From: a bacterium
Lineage (GTDB): Bacteria > Patescibacteriota > Microgenomatia > Levybacterales > UBA12049
Reading direction: 5' to 3'
NCBI GenBank assembly: GCA_021813145.1
Contig: JAKALS010000001.1
Coordinates: 3,515 to 67,514 of the forward strand
Length of the DNA stretch: 64,000 bases
Shown here: positions 2,209 through 30,286 of the stretch, one piece after another
How the letters are laid out: each line of letters opens with the position of its first letter
Numbering within the stretch: position 1 is the stretch's first letter
The notes under the pieces: generated by a model
The model's database searches: none
Seen by the model: the letters and a program-made list of their open reading frames with translations, nothing else
Told to the model about the DNA's origin: nothing
Translations under genes and position numbers: made by a program

Positions 2209-2862
2209 TTATTTTGCAGACATAGTTCCGGAAGTGTTAAACGGAGCGGGTGTTTGATTCTGATTTACAAAGAATAGGCTTCCTGTACTCGTTTTTAATA
2301 CCGACTGGGCAACTCCCTGCGCCGTAACTGCTGTTTTTGGAAGGAAATCCAAAAGCGTACTTCCTGTTGCAGTTGGCGCTTCCGTAAATGTGATTGTTGC
2401 TATAGTTCCGTTCCCCGATACGCCTTTTTGTCCGAGAGGGACTCCCAAAGCCAGGGAAATTCTCCCGTTTTGCTGATCCACATTTTTAAGAAGCACAACG
2501 GGATTTTGTATAAAACTTCCGGGAGCAATCTGTACATTTAGAAGGACCTTAGGGTCAAATGATAACTCAAGCTGGGTAGCGGTAATCTTATCTGTTCCGC
2601 TTGAAATATTAACTTGTGTGGTATATGTGTTAAGACCTGTTTGTTTGGGGGCAGCTAATGTCAATTCGGTATGTGCATAGGGAGGAAAAAGAACTTTATT
2701 TGGAGTTGTCGTAGGCGAAGGGGGAACTATTTTTTGTGTATAAACGGCAAGTCCCAAAAGAACAAGAGTGACTGCGACGAGAAACGTTAAAAATACAACA
2801 GTTTGCTTTGGTAACCCTTTTTTTGCTGTTTGTGGAGTTGTCTGGACAGGTTTATTTTCCAT
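2209..2862 (-). CDS. membrane-anchored protein with a putative cohesin-like beta-sandwich domain
   Basis: N-terminal signal anchor (VVFLTFLVAVTLVLLGLAVY). C-terminal region LELSFDPKVLLNVQIAPGSF...GTIATITFTEAP resembles cohesin domain signatures. Sits directly upstream of two dockerin-bearing proteins. Confidence 0.4.
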   Translation of the reverse strand: MENKPVQTTPQTAKKGLPKQTVVFLTFLVAVTLVLLGLAVYTQKIVPPSPTTTPNKVLFPPYAHTELTLAAPKQTGLNTYTTQVNISSGTDKITATQLELSFDPKVLLNVQIAPGSFIQNPVVLLKNVDQQNGRISLALGVPLGQKGVSGNGTIATITFTEAPTATGSTLLDFLPKTAVTAQGVAQSVLKTSTGSLFFVNQNQTPAPFNTSGTMSAK

Positions 2863-2920
2863 AAACTAATTAAATGATAAATAATCGCTATTCAATAGTC
2901 AATAGTAATAGTCTTAATAA

Positions 2921-5089
2921 CTAATCTCCGCTTTGTACGGAATACTCCCGTACAAAAAGATTATAGTCAAATTTATTTACAACCCCATTGTCATCAAGGT
3001 CAGAATTGATAATATAGCTCGGGTTACTGTTGCAGAGTTGGTGGTTATCTACATTGGCAACATCCGGGTCGTTAATGCAGCTTAAGAGAATATTATAGTC
3101 GGTTATATTTAAAACATTATCTCCGTTTACGTCTCCCGCAACAAGGTTAACCTGGGGCATCTGTGCGGTCTGTCCGGCAGCAATATTTTGTATTCCCGGA
3201 ATAAGCCTTCTTAAATGTCCGTCGGATTTTACTTTAATAGTATAATTTCCCGTTACAAAATTTCCTCCAAGGTCAACCGTTCCGGTAAATATACCTGTTC
3301 CCGCGTTGTAATTTATTGAGCCTAATTTATCTACCACCTGATTGTTATTACTGTCAAACACCCAAACCTCGACATTTCTGTTAGGATGAACAGGATTCTG
3401 ATTTGAAGAGCTCGGATTAGGATTTTCGTTGTCTCCTACAGATCCTATTGCATCCATTCCTACTTTAAGAGCCAGAAGTGTATCTCCCGGAGCAGGGGAA
3501 GCGGTAGGCGCCGGGCTTGAAGTAGGCGTAGGCGTTGGAACTTGGCAGGATCCGTTATAGCAGGCGACCCCGTTTGCGCAGGATGCATTGCATGACTGGT
3601 TATAAACATTTACCGGATTGCACTGGGAGCTGTTTACGTTATATGTGTTATAAACGCATGTCTCGGTTCCGCTTGCCGCTCCGCAGGCATTTACCTGGCT
3701 TGGCTGGCAAACCGCCTGGCTGCAATCCGCGATTCCGACTCCTTGAGAACTTCCATTACAATCCGGAGTGGGAGTCGGGCTGGGAGTGGGCGACGGACAG
3801 GTAGCCGCTGTAAATGTTCCCTGAGCGCTTTGTGCATTTGTTCCTAAAGTATAGACATACCATTGGAATTGGTGTCCTTGATTAAATCCGCACGAATATC
3901 CGGTTCCCGATTGGAGAGGGTCTGTGCATTGTGTAAAGTTATAGGTTGCTCCATTTGAGGGATTTTTAACGGTAGTGTCTCCTGCCTGTCTTGGAGAATA
4001 AAAACTGTTTGCCGTTCCGCTCCCATACTGGTAGGGCCCCCACCACTGATTTGCGGTTACATCATAGTATTTAATATAAACTCCGCTTCCGTCGGTAGGC
4101 CTTGTCCAAGTAAAGTATGTAGAGGACACATTGGCATCGTTTCCGGCTGTGTTTGCGGGATATCCTACTCCGCAATAAGTTTGCTGATTAAGGTTTGTTG
4201 CAACGGAATTGCTGGGAGAAGCAGTAGGGCTAGGAGACGGAGTTTGCCCAATAGGTGTGGATGTAGGAGCAGGAGTGCTTGCACAGGATGCTGTTGTAAA
4301 AGGCTGACCGTTTACCTGAACTCTTGCCCCGGATGTATTTACATATGTCATATACCAGGTCACTGTTTGTCCTTCTCTAAATCCGCAACTGTAGCCTGTT
4401 GTTAACCCCGAACATTGATTGAAATTAAATCCGTTATTTGTTGTCCCGGCTTTAAAAGGTGTTGTAATACTTGTTGACGAACCGGAAGTATAAGGACCAT
4501 AGGTATTATAGTCTGTAGTTATCTGATATTTGATTAAATATTGGGGATTAGAGGACGCGTCCGAAGGTTTCGTCCAGCTGAAAGTAGAAAATACAACACA
4601 TTGTCCGCCGCTTGTGCTACTCGAGCAGTTTCCGTTTGTGCAGTACTGCGCATAGCTTGTTCCGGTAGGGATCCCTTGAGGAGTAGTCGGATTGGGAGTC
4701 GGACTTGAAGGATTTATTACGGGTGTAGATACTGGTGTAGACACAGGCGTAGCGGTGGGGGCAGGTGTAGGTGTTTTATCTATATAGCACGAAACATCTC
4801 CCGCAGATCCTCCTACCGTTGCGGCACAATGGTAGTCAACAGGGCATTGATATTGATTATAAGCGGTTCCAGAACTGTTGCACTGTTGATAACCTCTCGG
4901 CAAACTGCCACCGCAAGTTTGGAAACCGGGCGTGCATGTAGAGGCATGTTGTTGGGTATTTTGCTGTTGTTGGGCTACCAAGACTGTTAGGGGGACAGCT
5001 GCTGCGATAATAAGAATGGCTAAAGCTGTAACCGTTCTTGTATGGCCAGGGGTCTTAAAAAACTCAACAAACCTTTTTAAAGGATTCAT
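2921..5089 (-). CDS. large secreted Cys-rich, Thr/Pro-linker protein with a C-terminal dockerin-like (type I) domain
   Basis: N-terminal signal anchor. Many Cys and PTPTPT linkers. C-terminus has DVNGDNVLNITDYNILL and DLDDNGVVNKFDYNLFV, i.e. duplicated DxNxDGxxxxxD calcium-binding loops. Confidence 0.6.
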   Translation of the reverse strand: MNPLKRFVEFFKTPGHTRTVTALAILIIAAAVPLTVLVAQQQQNTQQHASTCTPGFQTCGGSLPRGYQQCNSSGTAYNQYQCPVDYHCAATVGGSAGDVSCYIDKTPTPAPTATPVSTPVSTPVINPSSPTPNPTTPQGIPTGTSYAQYCTNGNCSSSTSGGQCVVFSTFSWTKPSDASSNPQYLIKYQITTDYNTYGPYTSGSSTSITTPFKAGTTNNGFNFNQCSGLTTGYSCGFREGQTVTWYMTYVNTSGARVQVNGQPFTTASCASTPAPTSTPIGQTPSPSPTASPSNSVATNLNQQTYCGVGYPANTAGNDANVSSTYFTWTRPTDGSGVYIKYYDVTANQWWGPYQYGSGTANSFYSPRQAGDTTVKNPSNGATYNFTQCTDPLQSGTGYSCGFNQGHQFQWYVYTLGTNAQSAQGTFTAATCPSPTPSPTPTPDCNGSSQGVGIADCSQAVCQPSQVNACGAASGTETCVYNTYNVNSSQCNPVNVYNQSCNASCANGVACYNGSCQVPTPTPTSSPAPTASPAPGDTLLALKVGMDAIGSVGDNENPNPSSSNQNPVHPNRNVEVWVFDSNNNQVVDKLGSINYNAGTGIFTGTVDLGGNFVTGNYTIKVKSDGHLRRLIPGIQNIAAGQTAQMPQVNLVAGDVNGDNVLNITDYNILLSCINDPDVANVDNHQLCNSNPSYIINSDLDDNGVVNKFDYNLFVREYSVQSGD

Positions 5090-5132
5090 TACTTTTAGAA
5101 TAGTTTAAGAGGCAGCTATTTGTCAATATAAA

Positions 5133-7181
5133 CTAATTGCCGTTTTGGACAGAGTATTCTCTTAGGAAGAGGTTATAGTCATATCTGTCTACGACTCCGT
5201 TGTCATCCAAATCGGATTGAATTATATAATTCGGGTTGCTGTTGCAAAGCTGGTGATTATCTACATTGGCAATTGTCGGGTCGCTTATGCAGCTTAATAA
5301 TATATTGTAGTCGTTTATATTTATGGCATTATTATTGTCGATATCTCCTGCAACAAGGTTAACCCTTGGCATATTGTTTGTTTGTCCCCCCGTTATATTT
5401 TGTATTCCGGGTATAAGCCTTCTTAAGTGTCCGTCGGATTTTACTTTAACAGTATAAATATCTGTCGGGATTAATCCGACATCAACGCTTCCCGTAAATA
5501 TTCCAGTTCCAGCATTATAATTTATGGAACCCATTTTATCGGCTATAAGATTATTATTTTTGTCGTACATCCAGACCTCTACATTTCTTTGGGGATGTTT
5601 CGGATTTTGATTGGAAGAACTCGGGTTGGGATTTTGATGATCACCTGTTGAGCCGATTGCATCTATGCCTATATTAAGGGCAAGCAATGTGTCCGCAGGA
5701 GCAGGGGTTGCCGTTGTGGTAGGCGCAGGTGAAGAACTGCCCGTAGGATTTGGGGTTGCGGTATTGGTTGGCTTAGGTGAAGCCGTTGCCTGTGCTATGC
5801 AGGTATTGCTTGAACAGATTGTTCCCAAAGCACATGAAGGTTGACACGTAACAATGGCGTGGATCGGGTTGCAGTTTGTGCTTCCGTTATAAGTAGTATA
5901 TGTACAAGTCTTGGAACCGCTTGTAGGTCCGCAAGCATCCAACGGAGTTGCAGCGCATGTGGTGCAGTTAGTAAGAGTTGTATTACAGACCGGCAAAGGT
6001 GTAGCGGTCGGCACGGGCGTAGGAGAGACTACTCCGCAACTGCTTTGGCATTGCACCAATGAAAGATTACCTGAATTTGTTCTAACACAAGCTCCGCTGA
6101 CACAGGCATAACCTGCGGAGGTCGGAAGTGGAGTTCCACCAGAACATGTCCCCAGACAATCGCTTAATGAAAGATTACCTGAATTTGTTCTAACACAAGC
6201 TCCGCTGACACAGGCGTAGCCGGCAGAGGTAGGGATAGGTGTGGGCGCAGGTGTTGCTATATCCTTGCAGCAAACGGTTCCGGCACCGCAGGTGTATCCC
6301 GAAACAGGTTGTAAACCGTTTCCTGAAAAACAGATACTGCTCGAAATGCACGAATACGGGCAATTGGAGGTTGGCGTAGGCGCCGGAGTAACTAAATCTT
6401 TGCAGCAAACGGTTCCGGCACCGCAGGTGTATCCCGAAACAGGGGAAAGACCGTTTGCAGAACTGCAAATTGTTGTGGAAATGCAGGAATACGGGCAATT
6501 GGGGGTAGGATTGACTGTCGGTTTGGGTGTAGGGGTAGCAGTCGGTTTAGGTGTTGCTCCGCAGGACCCTCCGCAATAACTTAAGGGAACCGAAATATGT
6601 GGACCGTTCGTGCAGGTTGCTGGTGTTCCTCTGCATCCGTATGAATATTCTTCGCAGTTTGTTGTACTTGTGCAAACATAGGTTGCGTTTCCCCCGCAGG
6701 ATGCATTTGTCGTTCCTGTTCCGGAAGTGCAGGTAGAGGTCGTATTGCAAACTCCAAACGAAGCTCCGCATGATGTCCCCGAGGGACAGGTCCATCTTTG
6801 AGATGTCAGACAGCCCGTTGCATTAGCAGTACAACTTGTATGATACAGTCCGCCGTACAAACTTGTAGAACTGGTTTTGGAGCATCCAGTGCATCCGTTA
6901 GCGCTGCATTGGCTACTAAGTTGTGAAAGGCAATAAGAGGACGCTTGCGAGGAAGTATCTGAAGTTCCGGATGCAGAAAAAGTCATGCTTATGGAGTGGG
7001 ATTGAACGGAACAATCGATCGAAGTTCCCGAAGCGTGCTGTTGCGTATTTTGCCTTTGCTGGGCGACTAAAACTGTAAGGGGAACTGCTGCTGCGATGAT
7101 AAGAATTACAAGTGCGGAAACGGTTCTTGTATGGCTTGGAATAGAAATAAATTCACGGAACCTTTTTAACGGGTTTTCCAT
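5133..7181 (-). CDS. paralogous secreted Cys-rich protein with a C-terminal dockerin-like domain and internal tandem modules
   Basis: N-terminal about 50 aa and C-terminal about 180 aa are nearly identical to 2921-5089 (GDIDNNNAININDYNILL and DLDDNGVVDRYDYNLF loops). Middle contains 2 x 36-aa and 2 x ~47-aa Cys-rich repeats. Confidence 0.6.
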   Translation of the reverse strand: MENPLKRFREFISIPSHTRTVSALVILIIAAAVPLTVLVAQQRQNTQQHASGTSIDCSVQSHSISMTFSASGTSDTSSQASSYCLSQLSSQCSANGCTGCSKTSSTSLYGGLYHTSCTANATGCLTSQRWTCPSGTSCGASFGVCNTTSTCTSGTGTTNASCGGNATYVCTSTTNCEEYSYGCRGTPATCTNGPHISVPLSYCGGSCGATPKPTATPTPKPTVNPTPNCPYSCISTTICSSANGLSPVSGYTCGAGTVCCKDLVTPAPTPTSNCPYSCISSSICFSGNGLQPVSGYTCGAGTVCCKDIATPAPTPIPTSAGYACVSGACVRTNSGNLSLSDCLGTCSGGTPLPTSAGYACVSGACVRTNSGNLSLVQCQSSCGVVSPTPVPTATPLPVCNTTLTNCTTCAATPLDACGPTSGSKTCTYTTYNGSTNCNPIHAIVTCQPSCALGTICSSNTCIAQATASPKPTNTATPNPTGSSSPAPTTTATPAPADTLLALNIGIDAIGSTGDHQNPNPSSSNQNPKHPQRNVEVWMYDKNNNLIADKMGSINYNAGTGIFTGSVDVGLIPTDIYTVKVKSDGHLRRLIPGIQNITGGQTNNMPRVNLVAGDIDNNNAININDYNILLSCISDPTIANVDNHQLCNSNPNYIIQSDLDDNGVVDRYDYNLFLREYSVQNGN
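6050..6240. repeat. in-frame tandem coding repeat, 2 x 108 nt (36-aa Cys-rich module AGYACVSGACVRTNSGNLSL...)
   Basis: aatgaaagattacctgaatttgttctaacacaagctccgctgacacaggc occurs at about 6058 and again at about 6166. Period is 108 nt. Confidence 0.7.
6240..6530. repeat. in-frame tandem coding repeat, 2 x ~144 nt (NCPYSCIS...GYTCGAGTVCCKD module)
   Basis: ttgcagcaaacggttccggcaccgcaggtgtatcccgaaacagg occurs at about 6265 and again at about 6409. Confidence 0.65.
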
Positions 7182-7225
7182 TTATTCTTAGAATAGTAAA
7201 AGCGAAATACTATGTCAAGGAGAGA

Positions 7226-8131
7226 ATGAATTGCGAACATGGGGTGTATACTAAAATTATGGATAGTGGAGACATAATAAAACCGGCCCTACAGGAATTA
7301 AAGAATGCTCCAAGAGTAGAAATGGTCGCACAGAGTATTCCGAATGAAGAACATCCAACCAGAAATGAGGATTCATTTTTTTATTCTCAAAGCGAAGGTG
7401 TCTTTGCCGTTTTTGACGGAGTAAGCCATCCTGCACGCGGAGATGTTGCATCCAGACAGGCAAAAGATAGTGTCTCCTCGGAGCTTTTTAAATCACAACT
7501 TAGAGGTTTGTCTTTTGAGGAATTCACTTCCAGGGTTTATTCTTCTTTGATTAAAGCAAATGAATCGGTTTTTGCTAGGGCTCAAAGAGAAGGGGAGATG
7601 GGAACAACCGCATCGGTTGGAGCTATCTGGGAAGGTCCGGGAGGAGAAAAGAAATTACTCGTGGGGAATGTGGGAGACAGCAGAGTATACATATTCAGAA
7701 CAGGAAAGCTTACACAAGTCACATTGGACGACGGAATTGTGCGAGGGGCGGGAAAAACCGAGGAGGAAGACCGTCTGCTCCAGGCAAAATTTAATAATGT
7801 TACCGATTTGGGAAGAGACTTGCCGGACCAGTTCGAACAGCGTTTATTCCTAAGAAGAAATATTTTGACGCAGATGATAGGCGGAGAGAAAAAGGTAATA
7901 CCAAGGCTCTACCGGGTCGATTTAAAGGCAGGGGATTTGCTTTTAGCCTGCTCGGATGGTATTTCCGATAATCTCGCGGATTTTGAGATTGAAGAGATAT
8001 TAAAAACAAGCAGAAATCTGGACGAAGGAATGCATCAGCTTTTATTTGTAGCCCAGGGAAGAAGCAGAAATGAGGGAAGAGAGTTAAGGGCAAAGCCCGA
8101 TGACATGACCGGAATACTTGTTAAGGTATAA
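7226..8131 (+). CDS. PP2C-family Ser/Thr protein phosphatase
   Basis: FAVFDGVSH and GDSRVY motifs, and an LACSDGISD region, typical of PPM/PP2C metal-binding sites. True start may be an internal Met. Confidence 0.7.
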   Translation: MNCEHGVYTKIMDSGDIIKPALQELKNAPRVEMVAQSIPNEEHPTRNEDSFFYSQSEGVFAVFDGVSHPARGDVASRQAKDSVSSELFKSQLRGLSFEEFTSRVYSSLIKANESVFARAQREGEMGTTASVGAIWEGPGGEKKLLVGNVGDSRVYIFRTGKLTQVTLDDGIVRGAGKTEEEDRLLQAKFNNVTDLGRDLPDQFEQRLFLRRNILTQMIGGEKKVIPRLYRVDLKAGDLLLACSDGISDNLADFEIEEILKTSRNLDEGMHQLLFVAQGRSRNEGRELRAKPDDMTGILVKV

Positions 8132-8153
8132 ATCTTAATGTATACTCATTTTC

Positions 8154-8714
8154 ATGCTTTTGTCGGATAGAGATTTAAAAAAAGCGCTCGATTCGGGAAG
8201 AATTAAAATAAACCCCGAGCCCGATTTTCCTACACAGCTTGGTTCCTGTTCGATAGATTTGCGTCTTGGTAATACATTCCGCATTTTTGATTACAGCCGT
8301 CATGCTTTTATAGATCCGTTTAAACCTGACGAATTTACAAAAGAGATAAGAATTAAAGAGGGCGAAGCTTTCATAATCCAACCCGGAGATTTCGTTTTGG
8401 GAACAACAATAGAAAACGTAGAAATCCCGGATGACCTGGTGGGAGGGCTTGAAGGAAGGTCGAGCATGGGAAGATTGGGAATAATTGTCCACTCAACAGC
8501 CGCTACTATAGACGCGGGATGGAGAGGGCATATTACTTTGGAACTCGCAAACATGGGTAAACTTCCCGTAGCGCTTTATCCGGGAATGAGAATTTGCTCG
8601 ATTTCATTTGAAGAACTCACAAGCCCGGCAGAAGTCCCTTATTATAAAAAGAAAAATGCGAAATACGTAAACCAGAAAGGGCCGGGGGAAAGTAAAATTT
8701 CAGCCGAAAAGTAA
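8154..8714 (+). CDS. dcd: dCTP deaminase
   Basis: Near-collinear with the Dcd family: SIDLRLGN, GRSSMGRLGIIVH, DAGWRGHITLEL, KLPVALYPGMRI. Confidence 0.85.
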   Translation: MLLSDRDLKKALDSGRIKINPEPDFPTQLGSCSIDLRLGNTFRIFDYSRHAFIDPFKPDEFTKEIRIKEGEAFIIQPGDFVLGTTIENVEIPDDLVGGLEGRSSMGRLGIIVHSTAATIDAGWRGHITLELANMGKLPVALYPGMRICSISFEELTSPAEVPYYKKKNAKYVNQKGPGESKISAEK

Positions 8715-9554
8715 ATGTCAAATCTTGAAAGAGAAATACCCGGATACCATAGCGGCAACCGCTTAATAAGAAGAGCTTCGGAAGAGGCAGCCCGTTTCTC
8801 CTCAAGAAGACAGTTTTCCCGGGGAAGTCTTGACAATCTCGATAAAGCTGTTACTCTTTGGCAAAACGGAAAAGAGGCCTGGATTGCCTCAAACCACGAA
8901 AGCGATGCAGACGGGCCTTTGGTTGCGGTTTCCTTAAGGGACGGGGGTCACCCTGAGTTTTTGGATAAGATGTTTCTCTTAATGGGCGATAAGATTTTGA
9001 GGAAAAAGTTCAGGGGATGGGTTGCTTCAAGTTACCGCCAGGTGGTAGTTCCTCAACAGGGATCGGGAAACGGAAACACAAGAGAACTTCTAAAAACTGC
9101 AAACAATGCAATTCCGGCACTTTTAAAAGAGGGGATGGTGGCATTCAGTTTTCCCGAAGGAACAAGAAGCAGAGACGGACTTTTGCACAATGCAACTTCT
9201 GTTCTTGGGCATTACATAGGCGACGAAGCTTTTGTTTTACCAATGGCTCTTGAGGGGGCAAGGGAACTGTGGCCGGTTGAAGGTTTCCCGAATTTTGGAA
9301 GCGAGGTTACTTTTCATTTTGGAAAACCTATACTAATGACAGAAATTATTGGAGAAATAGAAGGATATGAAAAAAACTCAGGAAAAAGAGTCACAAAAAA
9401 TAAAAGGAATGAAATAATAGTGGATGTAATTATGAGAAGGGGAATTGCCCCTTTGCTTCCGGAAAGAAAAAGGGGAGAATACTCCGATTTTTCGGTGTCT
9501 GTTTCGGATTTGTTAAGAAACGGCAATCATAAACAAAAAATGCTTATTGCATAA
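8715..9554 (+). CDS. PlsC-family lysophospholipid acyltransferase-like protein
   Basis: NHESDAD (H-x4-D motif I) and FPEGTRS (motif III). Confidence 0.5.
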   Translation: MSNLEREIPGYHSGNRLIRRASEEAARFSSRRQFSRGSLDNLDKAVTLWQNGKEAWIASNHESDADGPLVAVSLRDGGHPEFLDKMFLLMGDKILRKKFRGWVASSYRQVVVPQQGSGNGNTRELLKTANNAIPALLKEGMVAFSFPEGTRSRDGLLHNATSVLGHYIGDEAFVLPMALEGARELWPVEGFPNFGSEVTFHFGKPILMTEIIGEIEGYEKNSGKRVTKNKRNEIIVDVIMRRGIAPLLPERKRGEYSDFSVSVSDLLRNGNHKQKMLIA

Positions 9555-9590
9555 ATTAATTAGTGTTGAATATAATGGGCAAAGTTATAA

Positions 9591-10280
9591 ATGAAGTATA
9601 AGGTTTCATTCAGCATAGACTTTCGAAGAAATCCCTATAGGGGAAAGTTTATTGCCCTCGAAGGAATAGACGGAAGCGGAAAAACAATACAAACCGCACG
9701 GATAGTAGAAGCTTTAAAAGAAAAAGGTTATGATGCTATCGGAATGAAAGAACCGACGGACCTTGTAATAGGAAAGTTTATAAAACAGGAAGTCCTTTCC
9801 GGAAAAATTAGCATACCTCCCGTTGCCATACAATATCTTTTCTCCGCCGACAGATCTATGCATCAGGTAGAAATAGAAAAACTTCTAAAGAAAGGAAAAA
9901 TTATAGTAAGCGACAGATACTTCTGGTCCGCGGTTTGTTACGGTATAGCGGATTTGGACCAGGTTGCGGATTATTACATAACCGTATTGTCGCTTCTTTC
10001 TCCGTATAACAGATTTTTAAAACCCGACATTACGTATTTCCTGGATATCCCTATTAAAACCGCTTTAAAAAGAATCGGTAAAAGTTCAAAGCATAACGAA
10101 ATATACGATAACGAGAAAAAACTTGTAAAAATAAAAAGAGCTTACGACTTTATCAAGAAAAAATTTGAAAAAGAGTTTGTTGCAGTTGATGCGGATAAAA
10201 CAATAGAAGAGGTCACCGATGAGCTACTAAAAAGGATAGAAAAAAGCGCCAAACGGGTTCATAAAGTTAAAAGTTCATAA
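9591..10280 (+). CDS. tmk: thymidylate (dTMP) kinase
   Basis: FIALEGIDGSGKTIQ P-loop and a DRY-like region typical of Tmk. Confidence 0.8.
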   Translation: MKYKVSFSIDFRRNPYRGKFIALEGIDGSGKTIQTARIVEALKEKGYDAIGMKEPTDLVIGKFIKQEVLSGKISIPPVAIQYLFSADRSMHQVEIEKLLKKGKIIVSDRYFWSAVCYGIADLDQVADYYITVLSLLSPYNRFLKPDITYFLDIPIKTALKRIGKSSKHNEIYDNEKKLVKIKRAYDFIKKKFEKEFVAVDADKTIEEVTDELLKRIEKSAKRVHKVKSS

Positions 10281-10283
10281 AAT

Positions 10284-10718
10284 ATGAGAGTTAAGATTAA
10301 AAGGATTGATAAAAGTATTCCTCTGCCGCAATACCATACAAAGGGCTCTGTCGGTTTTGATTTAACGGCAAGGGAAGAGGTTGAAGTTCCTCCTTTTACT
10401 ACGGCACAAATCCCCCTTAATATAATTGTCAAGGTTCCAAAGGGTTACGGTTTGTTTCTTTTTTCAAGGAGTTCTACTCCGGCCAGAAAAGGCCTTATGG
10501 TCGCAAACGGAGTAGGTGTCATAGATCAGGACTACAGCGGGGAAGACGATGAGCTTAAACTTGCTGCGCTGAATTTTACAAAGAAAAAGGTCGTTGTAGA
10601 AAAAGGGGAAAGGATATGTCAGGGGATATTTTTAAAACTTGATACGCCGCAATTTTTGGAAGTTAATAAAATGTCGGCAAAATCCAGGGGCGGTTTCGGT
10701 TCAACAGGACATAAGTAA
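10284..10718 (+). CDS. dut: dUTP diphosphatase (dUTPase)
   Basis: SRSS, GVIDQDYSGE and RGGFGSTG motifs, collinear with trimeric dUTPases. Confidence 0.85.
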   Translation: MRVKIKRIDKSIPLPQYHTKGSVGFDLTAREEVEVPPFTTAQIPLNIIVKVPKGYGLFLFSRSSTPARKGLMVANGVGVIDQDYSGEDDELKLAALNFTKKKVVVEKGERICQGIFLKLDTPQFLEVNKMSAKSRGGFGSTGHK

Positions 10719-10736
10719 GTTAAAAGTTTATAAAGT

Positions 10737-11660
10737 ATGAAGACACTTGGAGCGGAAGAACAATATCTGGAACTTCTTAAAGATATACTTAAAAACGGAA
10801 AGTATAAAGACGACAGGACAAAAACAGGTACCAAATCACTTTTCGGAAGACAGCTTAGATACGATTTATCGAAAGGTTTCCCTCTTTTAACGACTAAAAA
10901 AGTTTTCCTTAAGGGGATAATTTATGAGCTTTTGTGGTTTTTAAAAGGGGAGTCCAATATAAAATACTTGGTGGACAACGGTGTTCATATATGGGACGAA
11001 TGGCCGTACAAATATTATGTAAATAAACAAAAGTCAAAAAACAATAAACGTATTCTCACTCAGGAGGAATACGTAGAAAAAGTAAAAAAAGATAAAAATT
11101 TTGCAAAGAAATGGGCAGATTTGGGGCCGGTTTACGGAGTCCAATGGAGACACTGGAAAAAACAGGGAAGAGGAGAAGTAGATCAGATAAAGCAGGTAAT
11201 AGAGGATATTAAAAAAACTCCGTATTCAAGAAGGCTTATCGTAACCGCCTGGAACCCCGGGGAAATAGACGACATAGTAAAAAGGGAAGGGCTTCCTCCC
11301 TGCCATACGCTTTTTCAGTTTTATGTAAATAACGGTAAACTATCGGTTCAGCTTTACCAAAGAAGCGCAGATTCATTCCTTGGAGTCCCTTTTAACATTG
11401 CCTCCTATGCTCTTTTAACAATGATGATGGCCCAGGTTACAGGTTTAAAACCCGGTGAATTTGTCCACACCTTCGGCGATGTACATATTTATTCCAACCA
11501 CATAAAACAGGTAAAAGAACAGTTAAAAAGAAAACCCAAGAAGCTTCCTGTAATGAAGATAAATCCGGCTGTTAAAGACATTTCAAAATTTAAATTTGAC
11601 GACTTTACTCTTGAAGGTTACAATCCTTACCCTCCGATAAAAGCTCCGGTGGCAGTTTAG
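10737..11660 (+). CDS. thyA: thymidylate synthase
   Basis: [12 protein letters not shown] active-site Cys region, plus [10 protein letters not shown] and HTFGDVHIY. Confidence 0.9.
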
Positions 11661-11766
11661 TATTTTTTCTCACTGATTTTTATATTCCCGGTTTGTTTAA
11701 ATATATCAAGACACTAATAGAATTGAAAAATATTAATTTAAGTAATAGAATTTAAGAGTTTTAAGT

Positions 11767-12246
11767 ATGAAGGTTTCGATAATTGCCGCAATGGACGAAA
11801 ACAGGGGAATAGGAAAACTGAATAAGCTTCCCTGGCATATATCCGCAGATTTGCAGAGATTTAAGGAACTTACGACGGGGCACACAGTAATCATGGGAAG
11901 AAAAACTTTCGAATCCATAGGAAACCCCTTGCCCGACAGGAAAAATATTATTCTTACACATGATTTATCCTACAACTCTCTGGGCTGCCAAATCTCAACT
12001 TCTTTAAAGGAAGCAATAGGGATGGCGCAGGCAGCAGGGGAGACGGAAGCTTTTGTAATTGGAGGCGGAGAAGTATTTTCCCAGGCAATTATATTCGCAG
12101 ATCAGCTTTATCTCACTATCGTTAAAGGCGATTTTCATGCCGACACTTTTTTCCCCGACTATTCGGAGTTTAAGAATAAAATAGTAGATCAGGATTTAAC
12201 AGAAGGTGATTATCACTTTAAATTTTTAACCCTTGTAAGAGGTTGA
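11767..12246 (+). CDS. folA: dihydrofolate reductase
   Basis: IAAMDENRGIGKLNKLPWH, TVIMGRKTFESIG, VIGGGEVF. Confidence 0.85.
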   Translation: MKVSIIAAMDENRGIGKLNKLPWHISADLQRFKELTTGHTVIMGRKTFESIGNPLPDRKNIILTHDLSYNSLGCQISTSLKEAIGMAQAAGETEAFVIGGGEVFSQAIIFADQLYLTIVKGDFHADTFFPDYSEFKNKIVDQDLTEGDYHFKFLTLVRG

Positions 12247-26154: not shown

Positions 26155-26670
26155 TCATTGCTGCAAAATAAAAATATTTATGTCCAATGGTGCTTCATTT
26201 GGATCTATGGCGAGGTTCTCATTAAATTGGACCATTATTTTATCTCCGGGTTTTAAATCGCTTACTCCCACCTTTGAAGTTGTTCCATTTTTATCTTGAA
26301 GGTATACTGAGGTAGTTAATAAGTTTTTCCCCGTAATTGGGATGTTTGTCATATCTGCTTTATCGCCCTCCAGCACTATTAGTACTCCTTTATTGTCTTT
26401 TGACGGAATTATATTTTTTACTATTCCGTTAACATTTTGGGTAAAATATACATTTGCATTTTTATAAGACGGCCAGCTTTCAAGCATTTTTAGGGCAATA
26501 GGGTTAATTGCTAGGTTTGCTATGGGTATAGGGGTAGAGGTTGATGTCCCGATCGGGACCTGAGCTATTTTTTTAGGTTCTTCAAAAACAAAAAGAAATA
26601 CAACTTCCGAAAAAGCCGTAATAAGAAGAGCAATTATTATGGCAAGGAACACCTTGTTGAGCCTGGACAC
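26155..26670 (-). CDS. membrane-anchored protein, paralog B of the pair that flanks the RiPP operon
   Basis: MSRLNKVFLAIIIALLITAFSEVVFLFVF is nearly identical in pattern to the N-terminus of 30523-31044. Pro/Thr linker. Confidence 0.5.
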   Translation of the reverse strand: MSRLNKVFLAIIIALLITAFSEVVFLFVFEEPKKIAQVPIGTSTSTPIPIANLAINPIALKMLESWPSYKNANVYFTQNVNGIVKNIIPSKDNKGVLIVLEGDKADMTNIPITGKNLLTTSVYLQDKNGTTSKVGVSDLKPGDKIMVQFNENLAIDPNEAPLDINIFILQQ

Positions 26671-26722
26671 TTTAAATCACCTGATTATAGTAGAACACTT
26701 TGCTTAAGCGATGTCAATAGCA

Positions 26723-27487
26723 CTATTTCAAGGGGTTGCCAAAGGAAAAAGTGCTAATTACTGTTTCCTCAGTCCCGTCTACATCAAGTAATTTGTTTAG
26801 TGTGTCTTCTTTAAAACCCGCTACCTCGCAACACCCAAGATTTAGGGGAATGGAATTTAGGTAAAAATTTTGGCCGAGATGGCCTGTATCGATAAAAACA
26901 TGTCTATAACCGCGTTCTCCGTATTTAACCGTAGTTCTTGCGAAAACTCCGGTAACAATAATTATAAAAGCCGACCCTTTAACCCATTCTTGGTCAAAAT
27001 ATTTTCTGAAGTTTATCGTTTTATACGCGTAAATATGCTCAAGACTGTGAGTTCTTGGGTAATAATGATAAATTCCGTTAGGAAGTTCGGTATTAAAAGA
27101 TAAAAGGTAAATTTCAAGAGGGTATCTTCCTCCTCCCGAAGGATAAAATCTAAGAGGATACAAATTTTCATCAAGATTTTTTATTCCTGCGCTATGGTAC
27201 AGGAGAGAGGAAATTCTTTTAAGGTCAACCTTTTCTTTAGTGAATTCCCTTATGGACTCTCTTTTTAGAAGCGCTTTGGATAAGGCAACTTTAGGAAGTT
27301 CAATTTTGGGAAGCTTAATCTGTTCAAAACGGAAATAGCTTTTAAAATAAACTTTTTTCCACGTTTCGGGAGGTTTTTTTAAATCTTTTCTGAAGCGGAC
27401 ATTTTTTGATGCTTCGTAAAATTTTTGAAAAGGTGAGTTGTTGATGTTTAATAACTCCTCAATCTCGTTGTTATTTTTTATTTTCAT
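26723..27487 (-). CDS. SagB-type (McbC-like) FMN-dependent dehydrogenase of azoline-to-azole RiPP pathways
   Basis: RFYPSGGGRYPLEIY resembles the SagB hallmark PSAGGLYP. GYRHVFIDTGHLGQNFYL and CEVAGF are nitroreductase-fold segments. Confidence 0.65.
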   Translation of the reverse strand: MKIKNNNEIEELLNINNSPFQKFYEASKNVRFRKDLKKPPETWKKVYFKSYFRFEQIKLPKIELPKVALSKALLKRESIREFTKEKVDLKRISSLLYHSAGIKNLDENLYPLRFYPSGGGRYPLEIYLLSFNTELPNGIYHYYPRTHSLEHIYAYKTINFRKYFDQEWVKGSAFIIIVTGVFARTTVKYGERGYRHVFIDTGHLGQNFYLNSIPLNLGCCEVAGFKEDTLNKLLDVDGTEETVISTFSFGNPLK

Positions 27488-28767
27488 ATAAAAGGATGCG
27501 GAACTTGATTAAAATTCCCGGTTTCCACGTTAAAGAAATCCGCCACTTCTTTTATTCTTCCCGTCTTTAATTCTTTCTCTTTCTCATTCAAATAGAGAGG
27601 TTGAAGACGGGGAATAATGATTTTGAATACTTTATAGTCAATATCGGTAAAGTTATCTAAAGTTATGTCGGAATAATATGCATCCAGATTATTTTTCTTT
27701 AAAATTTTTTTCACTGTTTCCAGTTCTTTTACAGGGTTGTCTATGGGGGGTAGGGTTTTATATATCTTCGATTTTTCCGATTTTGTGAGAAAATCTAATT
27801 TGTCTTCCATTTGGGGCGTCATCCATAAAAGTGCCCTTTCAGCAATAGTTGGAACATGTTTTCTTATTTTTACATTTTTCTTTTTGTCAAATAGCTGCAA
27901 TTTCGCAAAGTATCTATTCATGAATGCCTCTTCCATGGCTCCCAGAATCGCAGTTTTTGTATCTAGGCTCGCTTTCATTCCCAGTGAAAGTTGGGGAAGA
28001 TTACCCGTTTCATCTAACAAAACGGTTAAGAATACAGGCACTTGAAGATTATTGGTAATATTAAAGATCAGGGGTTTTAGTCTGTATCTCTTGTAATAAT
28101 CGCCTAGGGATTTTATAGCGCTATCCTTAATGGAACTTATTTTTATCTTGGGGACCCTTATTTTATTAAGATATACCGTCATGAATGCATCTCTTTCTAT
28201 GACCTCATAAATTCCATTAAGAATAACTCTTGTGCTATCAAATCCTCCAGCTGCACCCGTACTTATACTTGAAGTCAGAGAAACTTCATTATCTTTTGGA
28301 AAGTTTAGATATAAAAGCTGGGCAGGAAGAAGTACCTGTTTATTGTCAAATAAATCGTGTCCCTTTATCCATCCGAACTTTGTTTCTTTTATTTTGTCCG
28401 TGTTTATATAAATTTGAGGATTTAAAGCATTAATTCTTTTCTTTTTCAGTTCATTATAGGTAGTATATGTAATCGATTTATAGCTATAGCAGCATTGGTT
28501 AAATCTTTCTGCAGCCTCGCTAAGACACTTCAATAGGGCGGTTTCTTTTGATGCATAAGATAATCCGTTTGCCCCGATTTTATATGCGTTGAGCTTATAT
28601 TCAGATTTCGGAAAAAAGGGATTACTTGAGTTATTAAGCATAACCGAATAGTAATTTAGCTTAGGTTCGTCATAAAAGTGGTTAGAGTTATTTGCTACTT
28701 TCTTAATAATTTTTTTTCCGTTAAGTTCTTTATAGAGTATTTTGATTAATTCCAAGTTATTTTCCAT
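27484..28767 (-). CDS. YcaO-domain cyclodehydratase (azoline-forming type)
   Basis: CLSEAAERFN and GIYEVIERDAF match the YcaO ATP/Mg-binding E-x-x-E-R motifs. SISTGAAGGFD. C-terminal ...VPHPFI is a proline-rich tail like the PxPxP of TOMM YcaOs. Confidence 0.7.
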   Translation of the reverse strand: MENNLELIKILYKELNGKKIIKKVANNSNHFYDEPKLNYYSVMLNNSSNPFFPKSEYKLNAYKIGANGLSYASKETALLKCLSEAAERFNQCCYSYKSITYTTYNELKKKRINALNPQIYINTDKIKETKFGWIKGHDLFDNKQVLLPAQLLYLNFPKDNEVSLTSSISTGAAGGFDSTRVILNGIYEVIERDAFMTVYLNKIRVPKIKISSIKDSAIKSLGDYYKRYRLKPLIFNITNNLQVPVFLTVLLDETGNLPQLSLGMKASLDTKTAILGAMEEAFMNRYFAKLQLFDKKKNVKIRKHVPTIAERALLWMTPQMEDKLDFLTKSEKSKIYKTLPPIDNPVKELETVKKILKKNNLDAYYSDITLDNFTDIDYKVFKIIIPRLQPLYLNEKEKELKTGRIKEVADFFNVETGNFNQVPHPFI

Positions 28768-29483
28768 TATTTTATGTAGTAAAAATTATCAAAATTTTTA
28801 ACAAATTCCATTAAATATTTTATTTGGCTGTTGTAGTTTTTAGAGTCTCCGCTGATTTTTTTCGCAAGGTTTTCGAGGATTTGTTCTTTATCTTCAATTT
28901 TACCTTCGGAAATATTTTTACTTTTTAAGGGGATATAGATATTTCCGATTGGGAATTTCCCGTGGTTTTTTTCAATAAAGGGATTTTCGATAAAAGGTGA
29001 TTGGTAAAAATAATATCTACCGTTTTCCTTTTTTATAATCGATATGTCATCGGTTAAAAATTTATTATGTATATTTTCTATGTCCTTAAAGAAGATTTCT
29101 GCTTTACCGTTTTTTTCTATTGCTATTGATTTTAGGAATAGCGTTTCATGTTTGAGAGATAATTTAAAGAGTATAAAATTAATTACCGTTTGGAATTGAA
29201 GAGGGTTTATGGAGTAGTAGGCGTTCATGCTATTTACTCCGGTTTCTTCAAAAAAACCCAAATAATATTTTTTACCTTTTCCATTGTAAAGTAAGTCCAT
29301 TCTCTTTTTTTCTATAAAATTTATCGTGTAGTCCGGTTTGTTGTTTGGATTTTTTATGATAAATCCTTTAAAAAAATCAATAATTTCATTTTTAATAGTA
29401 TCTCTTACAAAAGGCTTTTCGCTTTTGTTAAAAACTGTTTTAATATTAAATCCGCCGATTTTAAGAGTTAGTGAATTATTCAT
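28767..29483 (-). CDS. HPr-kinase-like family protein lacking a Walker A motif (paralog of 29489-30286)
   Basis: Collinear with 29489-30286 and 48517-49332 (shared NFILF/NFVLL region and C-terminal QIKYLMEF..FDNFY). No GxxGxGKST P-loop. Confidence 0.5.
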   Translation of the reverse strand: MNNSLTLKIGGFNIKTVFNKSEKPFVRDTIKNEIIDFFKGFIIKNPNNKPDYTINFIEKKRMDLLYNGKGKKYYLGFFEETGVNSMNAYYSINPLQFQTVINFILFKLSLKHETLFLKSIAIEKNGKAEIFFKDIENIHNKFLTDDISIIKKENGRYYFYQSPFIENPFIEKNHGKFPIGNIYIPLKSKNISEGKIEDKEQILENLAKKISGDSKNYNSQIKYLMEFVKNFDNFYYIK

Positions 29484-29488
29484 ATTCC

Positions 29489-30286
29489 CTAAAGAGTATT
29501 TTCCAATAATTTTATAAGGCCCTTGCTGCTTTTTGAGAAATAGAGAAAATAAAAGTTATCGAATTCGCTTATAAACTCCATAAGATATTTTATTTGAGTA
29601 GAGTAGTGCTCGTCTCTTGTAAAGATTTGTTTTGATATTAATTTTAGAACATACTCCTTGTTTGTGATTTTTTTGATTTCAAAATGCTTAGATTTTTTTA
29701 AAAAATACACTGAATTTACGGTTGTCCCACTGGAGGTCTTGGTGATCAGGTTTTTTTCCAGGATAGGCGATTGATACAAGTTATATTTGCTTGCCTCTTT
29801 TCTAATTAATGTTATGTCATCGGATAATTTGAAATACCTGTTTTTTAAAAGGTTTGCTGTTGTTGACTTTCCCGCTCCGCTTTTGCCAAGAAAAATATAT
29901 GCCTTGTTATTAATCTTTACTGCGGAAGAATGCAAAAACAAAATTTTATTTTTTTCACTTAATCTTAAAAGTACAAAATTTACCAGCGATTGAAATTGAA
30001 AAATATTTATAAGGTAATGGGTTTTGATTCTATTTTTTTTTATTATTTCGAAAAAAGCCAGATAATATTTCGATTTATTTTTTTCGCTTAATAACTCAAG
30101 TTTTTCTTCTTCCGTTATTTCGATAATAAAGTCGGGGCTTTTAGGTTTATTCTCTATAAAGTTAGCAAAGAAATCTTCAATATTATTTTTTAAAATTTTT
30201 TTTGCAACATTTAATTCAGTCTTTTTAAATATAATCTTTATGGAAAATCCGCCCACTAAAATATTTATAATTTCGGTATTTTTCAT
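29489..30286 (-). CDS. HPr kinase/phosphorylase C-terminal-domain-like putative peptide kinase
   Basis: FLGKSGAGKSTTANLLKNRYFKLSDD matches the HprK P-loop region [25 protein letters not shown]. Confidence 0.55.
   Translation of the reverse strand: MKNTEIINILVGGFSIKIIFKKTELNVAKKILKNNIEDFFANFIENKPKSPDFIIEITEEEKLELLSEKNKSKYYLAFFEIIKKNRIKTHYLINIFQFQSLVNFVLLRLSEKNKILFLHSSAVKINNKAYIFLGKSGAGKSTTANLLKNRYFKLSDDITLIRKEASKYNLYQSPILEKNLITKTSSGTTVNSVYFLKKSKHFEIKKITNKEYVLKLISKQIFTRDEHYSTQIKYLMEFISEFDNFYFLYFSKSSKGLIKLLENTL

Follow-up and report, generated by a model that had tools for sequence, protein, structure and literature searches.

The cohesin-dockerin locus

This report concerns a three-gene locus at positions 2209-7181 (minus strand) of a 64-kb window of bacterial DNA, the window being the whole stretch that was analysed. 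The window DNA was 100% identical to a stretch of a 248,936-bp metagenomic contig. Three intact open reading frames (ORFs) occupy the locus: gene A (2209..2862), which encodes a 217-amino-acid (aa) single-cohesin protein recognised from its ORF, the cohesin family PF00963 and AlphaFold2 (AF2) modelling; gene B (2921..5089), which encodes a 722-aa modular protein predicted to be exported; and gene C (5133..7181), which encodes a 682-aa paralog of B. B and C were delimited by their ORFs and by family hidden Markov models (HMMs), and C in addition by internal repeats. The first-pass annotation of this DNA had placed the three ORFs at these same positions, and the motifs that it quoted were recovered in the products (DVNGDNVLNITD and DLDDNGVVNKFD in B, DIDNNNAININD and DLDDNGVVDRYD in C, and LELSFDPKVLLNVQIAPGSF in A). 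ORFs on the plus strand between 2209 and 7181 were short overlapping artefacts.

B and C were 39% identical over their full length. They contain 28 and 50 cysteines, respectively, and A contains none; Thr, Ser and Pro together make up ~30% of each of the three proteins. A protein identical to B (P0058) was found on 5 contigs. The B/C family is without Pfam annotation in public data, and an NCBIfam scan of A, B and C gave no match for any of them. Across the other 57 kb of the window, custom family HMMs detected no cohesin or dockerin in addition to those of A, B and C. A CPR-like (candidate phyla radiation) source organism had been proposed on first reading, and is supported because the relatives of these proteins belong to Patescibacteria, mostly Candidatus Levyibacteriota.

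Gene C corresponds to L032:7909-9957 on the identical public contig, where the public gene call keeps its last 145 aa only and small antisense ORFs are called over its Cys-rich part. The full 682-codon frame is open, and both of its ends matched family profiles.

Gene A encodes a single cohesin behind a predicted membrane helix

The A protein consists of a short Lys-rich N-terminus, a hydrophobic helix, a Pro/Thr linker, the cohesin domain and a short low-complexity tail. Residues 81-186 matched PF00963 with 41.4 bits (E=2.1e-10; gathering score 24.1), and 56 of 57 homologs of ~211-217 aa carried a precomputed PF00963 assignment. Named homologs read 'cohesin domain-containing protein [Patescibacteria group bacterium]'; that A homologs are cohesin-domain proteins is thus already known from NCBI labels. 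The top sequence matches of A in the PDB were cellulosomal cohesins (4uyp, 4ums).

The AF2 model of A, made from 33 family sequences (mean predicted local distance difference test, pLDDT, 82), contained an all-β sandwich with strands over residues 65-199 and no internal helix, most of the domain having a pLDDT >90. The cohesin β-sandwich defined by Pfam, AF2 and Foldseek spans residues ~62-200 (2263..2679, minus strand), and the model and its Foldseek matches agreed on a nine-stranded flattened β-sandwich (jelly-roll). The top 50 Foldseek matches in the PDB were cohesins without exception (E down to 1.2e-8; TM-score, TMt, up to 0.79). The resemblance to a cohesin that had been noticed in the 2209-2862 product is therefore confirmed by a significant PF00963 match and by the cohesin fold. 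The model was closer to type I cohesins (TMt 0.75-0.79; e.g. 4uyq, 1g1k and OlpA 3ul4) than to type II cohesins (TMt 0.55-0.60). The extra α-helix and β-flaps of type II cohesins, which extend that module to ~165-175 aa, were absent from the ~140-aa, helix-free sandwich of A. Across the family the presumptive dockerin-binding sheet (strands 8-3-6-5, assigned by analogy) was the better conserved of the two, with a mean entropy of 0.85 vs 1.29 for the opposite sheet (p=0.01).

The single strongly hydrophobic N-terminal stretch of A is a predicted transmembrane helix of 23 residues (residues 19-41; 2740..2808, minus strand; Kyte-Doolittle maximum 2.92), which AF2 also modelled as a helix with a block pLDDT of ~90. 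Four lysines precede it, and T21, L28 and L35 within it were invariant across the family. The linker at ~42-62 was disordered in the AF2 model. Because of the 23-residue helix, the four preceding lysines and the family-invariant positions, the simplest reading is a presumed N-in/C-out signal-anchor. Neither surface-layer homology (SLH) repeats nor a sortase LPXTG signal was found in A by Pfam and NCBIfam scans and in the sequence; the N-terminal hydrophobic helix stands in their place. A plausibly works like an anchoring scaffoldin of the SdbA/OlpA/ScaE type, and it is not a member of those families.

B and C end in an X module-dockerin dyad

The C-terminal 74 residues of B form a dockerin (residues 649-722; 2924..3145, minus strand; PF00404, family profile and AF2), which is immediately preceded by an X-module-like, immunoglobulin (Ig)-type β-sandwich (residues 536-648; 3146..3484, minus strand; AF2 and profile). 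Profiles and family HMMs identified the same arrangement in C, with an X-like module at residues 491-608 and a dockerin at 609-682 (together 5136..5711, minus strand). The dockerin of B consists of a first loop and helix (DVNGDNVLNITD-YNILLSC...), a Cys-Cys linker, a second loop and helix (DLDDNGVVNKFD-YNLFVREY) and the conserved tail REYSVQSGD. That of C carries the loops DIDNNNAININD and DLDDNGVVDRYD and was 76% identical to it.

The family features of the dockerin were taken from an alignment of 29 family C-termini (A1) and a dockerin-only family profile (A5). In both, the loops followed the canonical pattern D-x-[DN]-x-[DN]-[GN]-x-[ILV]-[ND]-x-x-D with the Asp residues at positions 1 and 12 invariant; in A1 each loop led into a conserved D-Y-N-[IL]-[LF] helix start. 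Position 6 of loop 1 in the B dockerin is N, not G. The A5 profile matched ~20 solved dockerins with E=2.5e-6 to 5e-4, and EF-hand proteins appeared only from E>=0.01. PF00404 itself was matched by 16 of the 29 aligned members (E<=1, best 7.6e-9) and by 39 of the 68 largest X module-dockerin (X-Doc) cluster members (E<=1e-4, best 2.7e-10). The duplicated loops, which on first reading might have been generic EF-hand-like calcium loops, are therefore better described as loop-helix segments of a three-helix module whose profile prefers solved dockerins.

The C-terminal 195 residues of B were modelled with AF2 (pLDDT 92.9, predicted TM-score 0.87); the model has β-sandwich strands at construct positions 10-126 (pLDDT >90), followed by helices at 135-144, 163-169 (short) and 179-189. 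In this model, and in the profile alignments, the X module lies immediately N-terminal to the dockerin and packs with it as a unit. The best PDB match of the full 195-residue profile was the X-module and type II dockerin of Clostridium thermocellum CipA (2b59_B, E=2.8e-8), followed by further CipA entries (3kcp, 5g5d), the Acetivibrio cellulolyticus X-Docs 4wi0 and 4u3s and the C. thermocellum X-Doc 5k39. These alignments spanned the last strands of the X module and the whole dockerin. When the X module was searched alone, the best PDB matches of its profile were X modules of A. cellulolyticus, but the similarity was marginal (E=0.036-0.046, ~30 residues). The sole significant Foldseek match of the X-Doc model was the CipA Coh9-X-DocII chain 4fl4_I (E=4.8e-6, rmsd (root-mean-square deviation) 6.8 A).

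The A5 profile placed the dockerin alone slightly closer to type I dockerins than to that of CipA. The 'type I' label of the first-pass annotation accordingly stands in part: the isolated dockerin and the cohesin are nearer to type I, whereas the architecture is the one seen in X-Doc anchoring dyads of type II/III systems, and the best match of the dyad is the CipA type II X-Doc. The pair has mixed type I and X-Doc features and fits no canonical type.

Throughout the family an invariant pair of cysteines (...LSC...LCN...) is found in the linker that separates the two dockerin segments, within 2924-3145 in B and 5136-5357 in C. It is not a usual dockerin feature and probably forms a disulfide that staples helix 1 to the linker.

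A conserved leader and Cys-rich cargo precede the dyad

The modules of B follow the order leader, small Cys module, R1, R2, Cys module, X-like Ig module and dockerin, with Pro/Thr linkers between them; those of C follow the order leader, 50-Cys cargo, X-like module and dockerin. Family HMMs recognised the leader, X module and dockerin in B (LEAD 7e-30, XMOD 7e-57, DOC 1e-35) and in C (LEAD 1e-31, XMOD 1e-51, DOC 2e-35). The export leader of B, delimited by conservation and the LEAD HMM (residues 1-48; 4946..5089, minus strand), has a positively charged n-region, a 20-aa h-region containing a Pro, and then QQQQNTQQHAS. A positively charged N-terminus precedes the hydrophobic segment in each of A, B and C. 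The Cys-rich and Pro/Thr-rich composition of the mature parts is typical of extracytoplasmic proteins, and the leader of B and C is predicted to be cleaved after export. B and C were also considered as type IV pilins or sortase substrates; this reading was rejected, the sequences having neither a G|FTLIE-type leader nor an LPXTG signal.

The leader pattern, RFxEFI..PSHxRT followed by the h-region ILIIAAAVPLTVLVA and QQQQ..QQHA, is unusually conserved (4946-5089 in B, 7032-7181 in C, and L001-L031). It was present on 69 of 132 Met-initiated representatives of the X-Doc family, and small dockerin-less proteins encoded nearby carry it too. The leader may serve as a lineage-specific signal for export or sorting.

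The two repeats of B (R1 and R2, residues 146-431; 3797..4654, minus strand), defined by their comparison with each other, are ~125 aa each, contain Cys, are separated by a Pro/Thr linker and were 40% identical (E=8e-22). A 12-Cys module found by sequence comparison at residues 444-516 of B (3542..3760, minus strand) recurs in C (residues 398-463) and in many relatives, and always stands just upstream of the X-Doc. The Cys-rich cargo of C, assigned from the sequence layout (residues 51-463; 5793..7031, minus strand), is made up of a 158-aa N-terminal Cys-rich region, NCPYSC...CCKD in two copies, SAGYACVSGAC... in two copies and the shared Cys module. The duplicated mini-modules are two of 36 aa and two of 30 aa, and are encoded by internal DNA repeats of 132 bp (82% identical) and 68 bp (93% identical). 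These recent internal duplications indicate that module shuffling in the cargo is ongoing. The cargo modules of B and C recurred only among close relatives, with number and order shuffled, and the R repeats were found only in close X-Doc relatives.

A profile of the R domain built from 12 sequences gave non-significant matches only (adenovirus fibre knob 0.038, fn3 0.026, CBM77 0.03), and an 'Fn3-like' R domain is an impression rather than a result. A word-indexed homology search with R1-R2 of B returned no match; it also failed to recover the parent protein B, probably as a result of compositional filtering.

The dockerin gene adjoins the cohesin gene in most relatives

A scan of one genome per species yielded 27 cohesin loci, mostly from Candidatus Levyibacteriota (Microgenomates group, Patescibacteria). 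HMMs were built for the cohesin, the X module, the dockerin and the leader and were run on all ORFs of these loci. At 23 of the 27, a gene ending in a dockerin (mostly an X-Doc) was the immediate same-strand neighbour of the cohesin gene, and several loci were alternating arrays of the form Doc-Coh-Doc-Coh(-Doc). The dockerins upstream of the cohesins within one locus were 76-95% identical despite different cargo; in some arrays a third, downstream protein carried a dockerin of a different type (~36% identical). Same-strand adjacency held over cohesin identities of ~32-78% and through repeated tandem duplication of Doc-Coh. This conserved linkage across species is the strongest indirect evidence that the two modules pair. 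In a mirror-tree/partial-Mantel analysis of 26 adjacent pairs, the cohesin distances rose both with those of the dockerin (r=0.91) and with those of the X module (r=0.94), so that all three modules co-diverge.

The metagenome-assembled genomes that carry the cassette (L006, L007, L011, L014, L015 and others) are often labelled 'uncultured Gammaproteobacteria' in public records, and single ones 'Methylomirabilota' or 'Acidoferrales'; these labels probably reflect mislabelling or mis-binning.

Proposed surface-display mechanism

The cohesin fold of A, the X-Docs of B and C and the adjacency of their genes make it probable that the locus encodes a non-cellulosomal cohesin-dockerin module for surface display or adhesion. 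We infer a mechanism in which A would bind B and C in a Ca2+-dependent manner, A would be retained in the membrane, the leaders of B and C would be cleaved, and the cargo would serve attachment. A would be a type II membrane protein whose N-terminal helix stays in the cytoplasmic membrane, and the ~20-residue Pro/Thr linker would hold its single compact cohesin just outside that membrane. B and C would be exported by Sec as disulfide-rich modules on Pro/Thr linkers, and the C-terminus of each would be a rigid pair of domains, an Ig-like X module followed by a dockerin with two calcium-binding loops. Once B or C is exported, this C-terminal X-Doc would plug into the cohesin of A. The docked protein would then be held by its C-terminus with the N-terminal Cys-rich modules projecting outward for binding or adhesion, and the cargo could attach the cell to a target such as a host cell or a polymer. 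B and C probably compete for, or alternate on, the same A anchor, because their dockerins are almost alike and a single cohesin would have to serve both.

Several observations weigh against this reading. The PF00404 matches of the two dockerins were below the gathering score of 22.9 (15.1 bits for B, 17.5 for its isolated C-terminus, and 9.7 for C), with alignments spanning profile positions 1-51 of 57. The cargo modules of B and C had no significant match in Pfam or the PDB, even with a profile in the case of the R domain, so no recognisable binding domain was found in them. Signal peptidase might cleave off the hydrophobic segment of A (possible site G-L-A|V), which would leave A soluble; the leader of B and C might instead be an uncleaved anchor; and the short linker of the cohesin would put A under any cell-wall layer. 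Four of the 27 cohesin loci were without a dockerin neighbour, comprising a distant subclade with a different neighbourhood and one contig edge. The co-divergence of the adjacent pairs could also be plain co-inheritance, because the cohesin tracks the X module at least as well as the dockerin.

Some of these observations are those expected if the dockerin-like module were an end-piece with a structural or ligand-binding role, stabilised by calcium, and did not bind A, the adjacency of the genes then reflecting shared regulation or ancestry of envelope genes. Such a role has been proposed for many orphan non-cellulosomal dockerins. It would accommodate the sub-threshold PF00404 scores, the cohesin loci that stand alone, a mirror-tree result explained by co-inheritance, and the disproportion between at least 1,069 X-Doc clusters (E<=1e-30) and 57 cohesin homologs, the latter number having come from a less sensitive search. 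However, persistent same-strand adjacency through tandem duplication is hard to explain without a functional link, the conservation of the cohesin is concentrated on the canonical binding sheet, and we know of no established function of cohesin modules other than dockerin binding. An end-piece of this kind is accordingly considered improbable, and pairing of A with the X-Docs of B and C is preferred.

The wider X-Doc family

An exhaustive profile search returned 4,055 X-Doc cluster representatives at E<=1e-3, at least 1,069 of them at E<=1e-30. In 138 of the best 141 representatives the X-Doc ended no more than 5 residues from the C-terminus. Among the 68 largest, the cargo included SdrD_B in 15, VWA in 10-11 and CBM_4_9 in 10, and further F5/8-type-C, PA14, β-helix, NPCBM, ricin, laminin-G-like and peptidoglycan-binding domains. 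The recognisable cargo of these 68 was mostly adhesin- or lectin-like, with few enzymes (some esterase and pectate-lyase-like).

Cohesin and dockerin are the defining modules of cellulosomes, and the locus might therefore be read as a minimal cellulosome, an enzyme-organising complex for the degradation of plant or microbial polysaccharides. A protein with a glycoside hydrolase family 10 (GH10) domain is encoded 30 kb away in the window, and a few X-Doc members have esterase, pectate-lyase-like or carbohydrate-binding module (CBM) domains. However, custom family HMMs found neither a dockerin nor the family leader on the GH10 protein; A has one cohesin and no CBM; and the cargo of the family consists mainly of adhesin and lectin domains. 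In B and C no glycoside hydrolase or CBM match was obtained, and Cys-rich modules were found instead, as the first-pass annotation had remarked in describing cargo that was not an obvious glycoside hydrolase. We regard a minimal cellulosome as very improbable. A cellulosome in the strict sense was rejected, given no carbohydrate-active enzyme in B or C, no multi-cohesin scaffoldin in the 64-kb window and a GH10 protein that is without a dockerin.

Seven of the 141 representatives (P0134, P0197, P0128, P0178, P0094, P0130 and P0207) combined leader, cohesin, cargo in some cases, and X-Doc in one chain, and L025:4435-6024 likewise joins leader, cohesin, X module and dockerin in one protein. Such chains could be adaptor scaffoldins or units that polymerise head-to-tail; if they act in this way, higher-order cohesin-dockerin assemblies would exist in these lineages.

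The same chains bear on a reading in which cohesin and dockerins do pair, although not as a simple membrane tether: A would be secreted after cleavage, or B and C would anchor themselves, and the pair would build an envelope lattice or fibre (polymerising, similar to a surface (S)-layer) or bridge cells. The N-terminal hydrophobic segments of A and of B and C are of similar length (~20-23 residues), and the X-Doc model had a weak structural match to the Sulfolobus S-layer protein SlaB (E=3e-3); both points, together with these single chains, which could polymerise or adapt, are consistent with such a lattice. The segments nevertheless differ in character. That of A is uninterrupted over its 23 residues, with invariant positions and no clear A-x-A site, as in an anchor, whereas B and C have a Pro within the h-region, and the conserved polar stretch after it, with its end at ...HA|S or ...LVA|QQ, looks more like that of a cleaved leader. 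Moreover, A, B and C cannot polymerise by themselves, because each has only a cohesin or only a dockerin. A lattice or bridge is therefore judged unlikely for this locus, and tethering of B and C to membrane-held A remains the favoured interpretation.

Promoter-like elements upstream of each gene

Inspection of the sequence revealed a -35/-10-like element on the minus strand before each gene: TTGACT-17-TATCAT ending 11 nt before the ATG of A (2874..2902), TTGACA-18-TATTCT ending 7 nt before the ATG of B (5097..5126) and TTGACA-17-TATTCT ending 8 nt before the ATG of C (7190..7218). No Shine-Dalgarno sequence was found upstream of A, B or C. The element TTGACA-N17/18-(AC)TATTCT stood upstream of 13 of 21 X-Doc genes and 15 of 350 background ORFs. 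In other species a conserved element, TTGACA-N17-ACTATTCT, ended 1-8 nt before X-Doc start codons, again with no Shine-Dalgarno sequence, and orthologous promoter-like positions were found at L001, L003, L005, L006, L008 and L022. Sigma-70-like sites were not enriched overall in the region (16 vs 10.3 +/- 3.2 expected), and the three upstream sites are credible only because of their position and cross-species conservation. Because each gene has its own -35/-10-like element ending 7-11 nt before the ATG and no Shine-Dalgarno sequence, A, B and C are probably separate, nearly leaderless transcription units and not one polycistronic operon.

A much broader proposal, which we offer tentatively and with considerable doubt, would make the locus one cassette of a large, previously undescribed, calcium-dependent 'plug-and-display' network in CPR bacteria of the Microgenomates group. 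Such a network might comprise membrane-helix cohesin anchors, at least 1,000 interchangeable X-Doc cargo clusters (adhesins, lectins and Cys-rich modules) and cohesin plus X-Doc adaptors or polymerisers, and might build the host-attachment apparatus of an episymbiont, each cargo gene being driven individually by a conserved strong promoter to give a nearly leaderless mRNA.

Relation to known cohesin-dockerin systems

Cohesins and dockerins outside cellulosomes occur in all domains of life. The closest functional precedent for the module proposed here is the CttA-ScaE pair of Ruminococcus flavefaciens. In that organism the adhesin gene cttA, whose product carries two CBMs and an X-Doc, lies directly upstream of scaE, and ScaE, which has one cohesin and is anchored to the cell wall, binds CttA (PMC4081043). 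The CttA-ScaE complex is mechanically ultrastable (PMC4266597). In both cases non-enzymatic cargo of a known or presumed binding type ends in an X-Doc, the known or proposed partner is a small single-cohesin protein that is, or is predicted to be, fixed to the cell surface, and the adhesin gene stands immediately upstream of the anchor gene, as it does in the window. The two differ in that ScaE has a C-terminal sortase signal and A a presumed N-terminal membrane helix, that the cargo of CttA is two CBMs and that of B and C Cys-rich modules, and that one host is a Firmicute and the other a CPR bacterium. The R. flavefaciens X-Doc was not among the sequence matches in PDB profile searches.

By sequence and fold, the X-Doc region was best matched by the X-DocII of C. 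(Acetivibrio) thermocellum CipA (2b59_B, 3kcp, 4fl4_I), which binds the type II cohesins of SdbA, OlpB and Orf2p. There a C-terminal X-Doc attaches a secreted protein to the cell surface, the role proposed for the X-Docs of B and C. Unlike that system, the cohesin of A has no type II hallmarks, the dockerin alone compared slightly better with type I, the anchor is a presumed membrane helix and not a set of SLH repeats, and no multi-cohesin scaffoldin takes the place of the docked protein. A parallel to the role proposed for A is offered by OlpA and OlpC of C. thermocellum, in which one type I cohesin per anchor directly binds individual dockerin proteins at the cell surface; the A model superposed well on the OlpA cohesin (3ul4_A, TMt 0.76). 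OlpA and OlpC are nevertheless SLH-anchored and bind enzyme dockerins that have no X module; to our knowledge, there is no conserved gene adjacency between them and their ligands. The cohesin 2xdh of Archaeoglobus fulgidus and the cohesin-like 2jh2 of Clostridium perfringens, both non-cellulosomal and non-cellulolytic, were among the fold matches of A. These are isolated modules or components of toxin complexes, whereas the present genes form a conserved two-gene cassette, in which the anchor is a presumed membrane helix and the X-Doc belongs to a large lineage-specific family.

The searchable literature yielded no account of such a cassette from CPR bacteria; the only related item was a brief reference to an essential Saccharibacterium protein with a dockerin domain (PMC10633639). 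The module differs from CttA-ScaE in the presumed membrane-helix anchor, the mixture of type I and X-Doc features and the conserved Cys pair of the dockerin. By these sequence comparisons the system is real and conserved, and it is suggestive for episymbiont attachment; to a cellulosome specialist it would be mechanistically unsurprising. Little has been learned so far about how the ultra-small cells of CPR/Patescibacteria attach to a host or substrate, and the majority of the proteins on their surface lack annotation. That B, C and their relatives are dockerin-tagged cargo for an adjacent cohesin anchor is a concrete hypothesis, testable with recombinant proteins, and the X-Doc profile, with its at least 1,069 clusters at E<=1e-30, offers a handle for cataloguing the surface-displayed proteome. 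X-Doc/cohesin anchoring, which is of extreme mechanical stability in the rumen and clostridial examples, would here extend to an anchor made of a membrane helix and to a dockerin with a probable disulfide, and this combination could serve as an orthogonal protein-assembly pair.

Other features of the window

The cassette adjoins a block of dNTP-metabolism genes on the plus strand (7226-12246) that encode a PP2C phosphatase, dCTP deaminase, an acyltransferase, thymidylate kinase, dUTPase, thymidylate synthase and dihydrofolate reductase. This block is conserved, and elsewhere too it lies next to the orthologous cassette (L001 and L003 flanks).

The GH10 protein mentioned above is a 749-aa product of 37657-39906 (minus strand), with a C-terminal domain of the GH10 xylanase family (PF00331, 2e-28) and an unannotated N-terminal part of 450 aa. 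An island of low GC content at ~24000-52000 (GC 0.28-0.36, vs 0.40-0.47 elsewhere) is rich in surface-glycan genes, among them those for a Wzy_C O-antigen-ligase-like protein, a DUF6056 protein, a PMT_2 mannosyltransferase-like protein, two GT4 glycosyltransferases and a carbamoyltransferase.

Within 26155-30286 (minus strand), a nitroreductase-family gene (26723-27487; PF00881, 6e-21) adjoins a YcaO cyclodehydratase gene (27484-28767; PF02624, 3.9e-46). From these family assignments, the pair is predicted to be the core of an azoline-type cluster (thiazole/oxazole-modified microcin, TOMM) for a ribosomally synthesised and post-translationally modified peptide (RiPP) in a CPR genome. The ORFs beside it (171, 238 and 265 aa) are unannotated, and the pair lies in a low-GC stretch.

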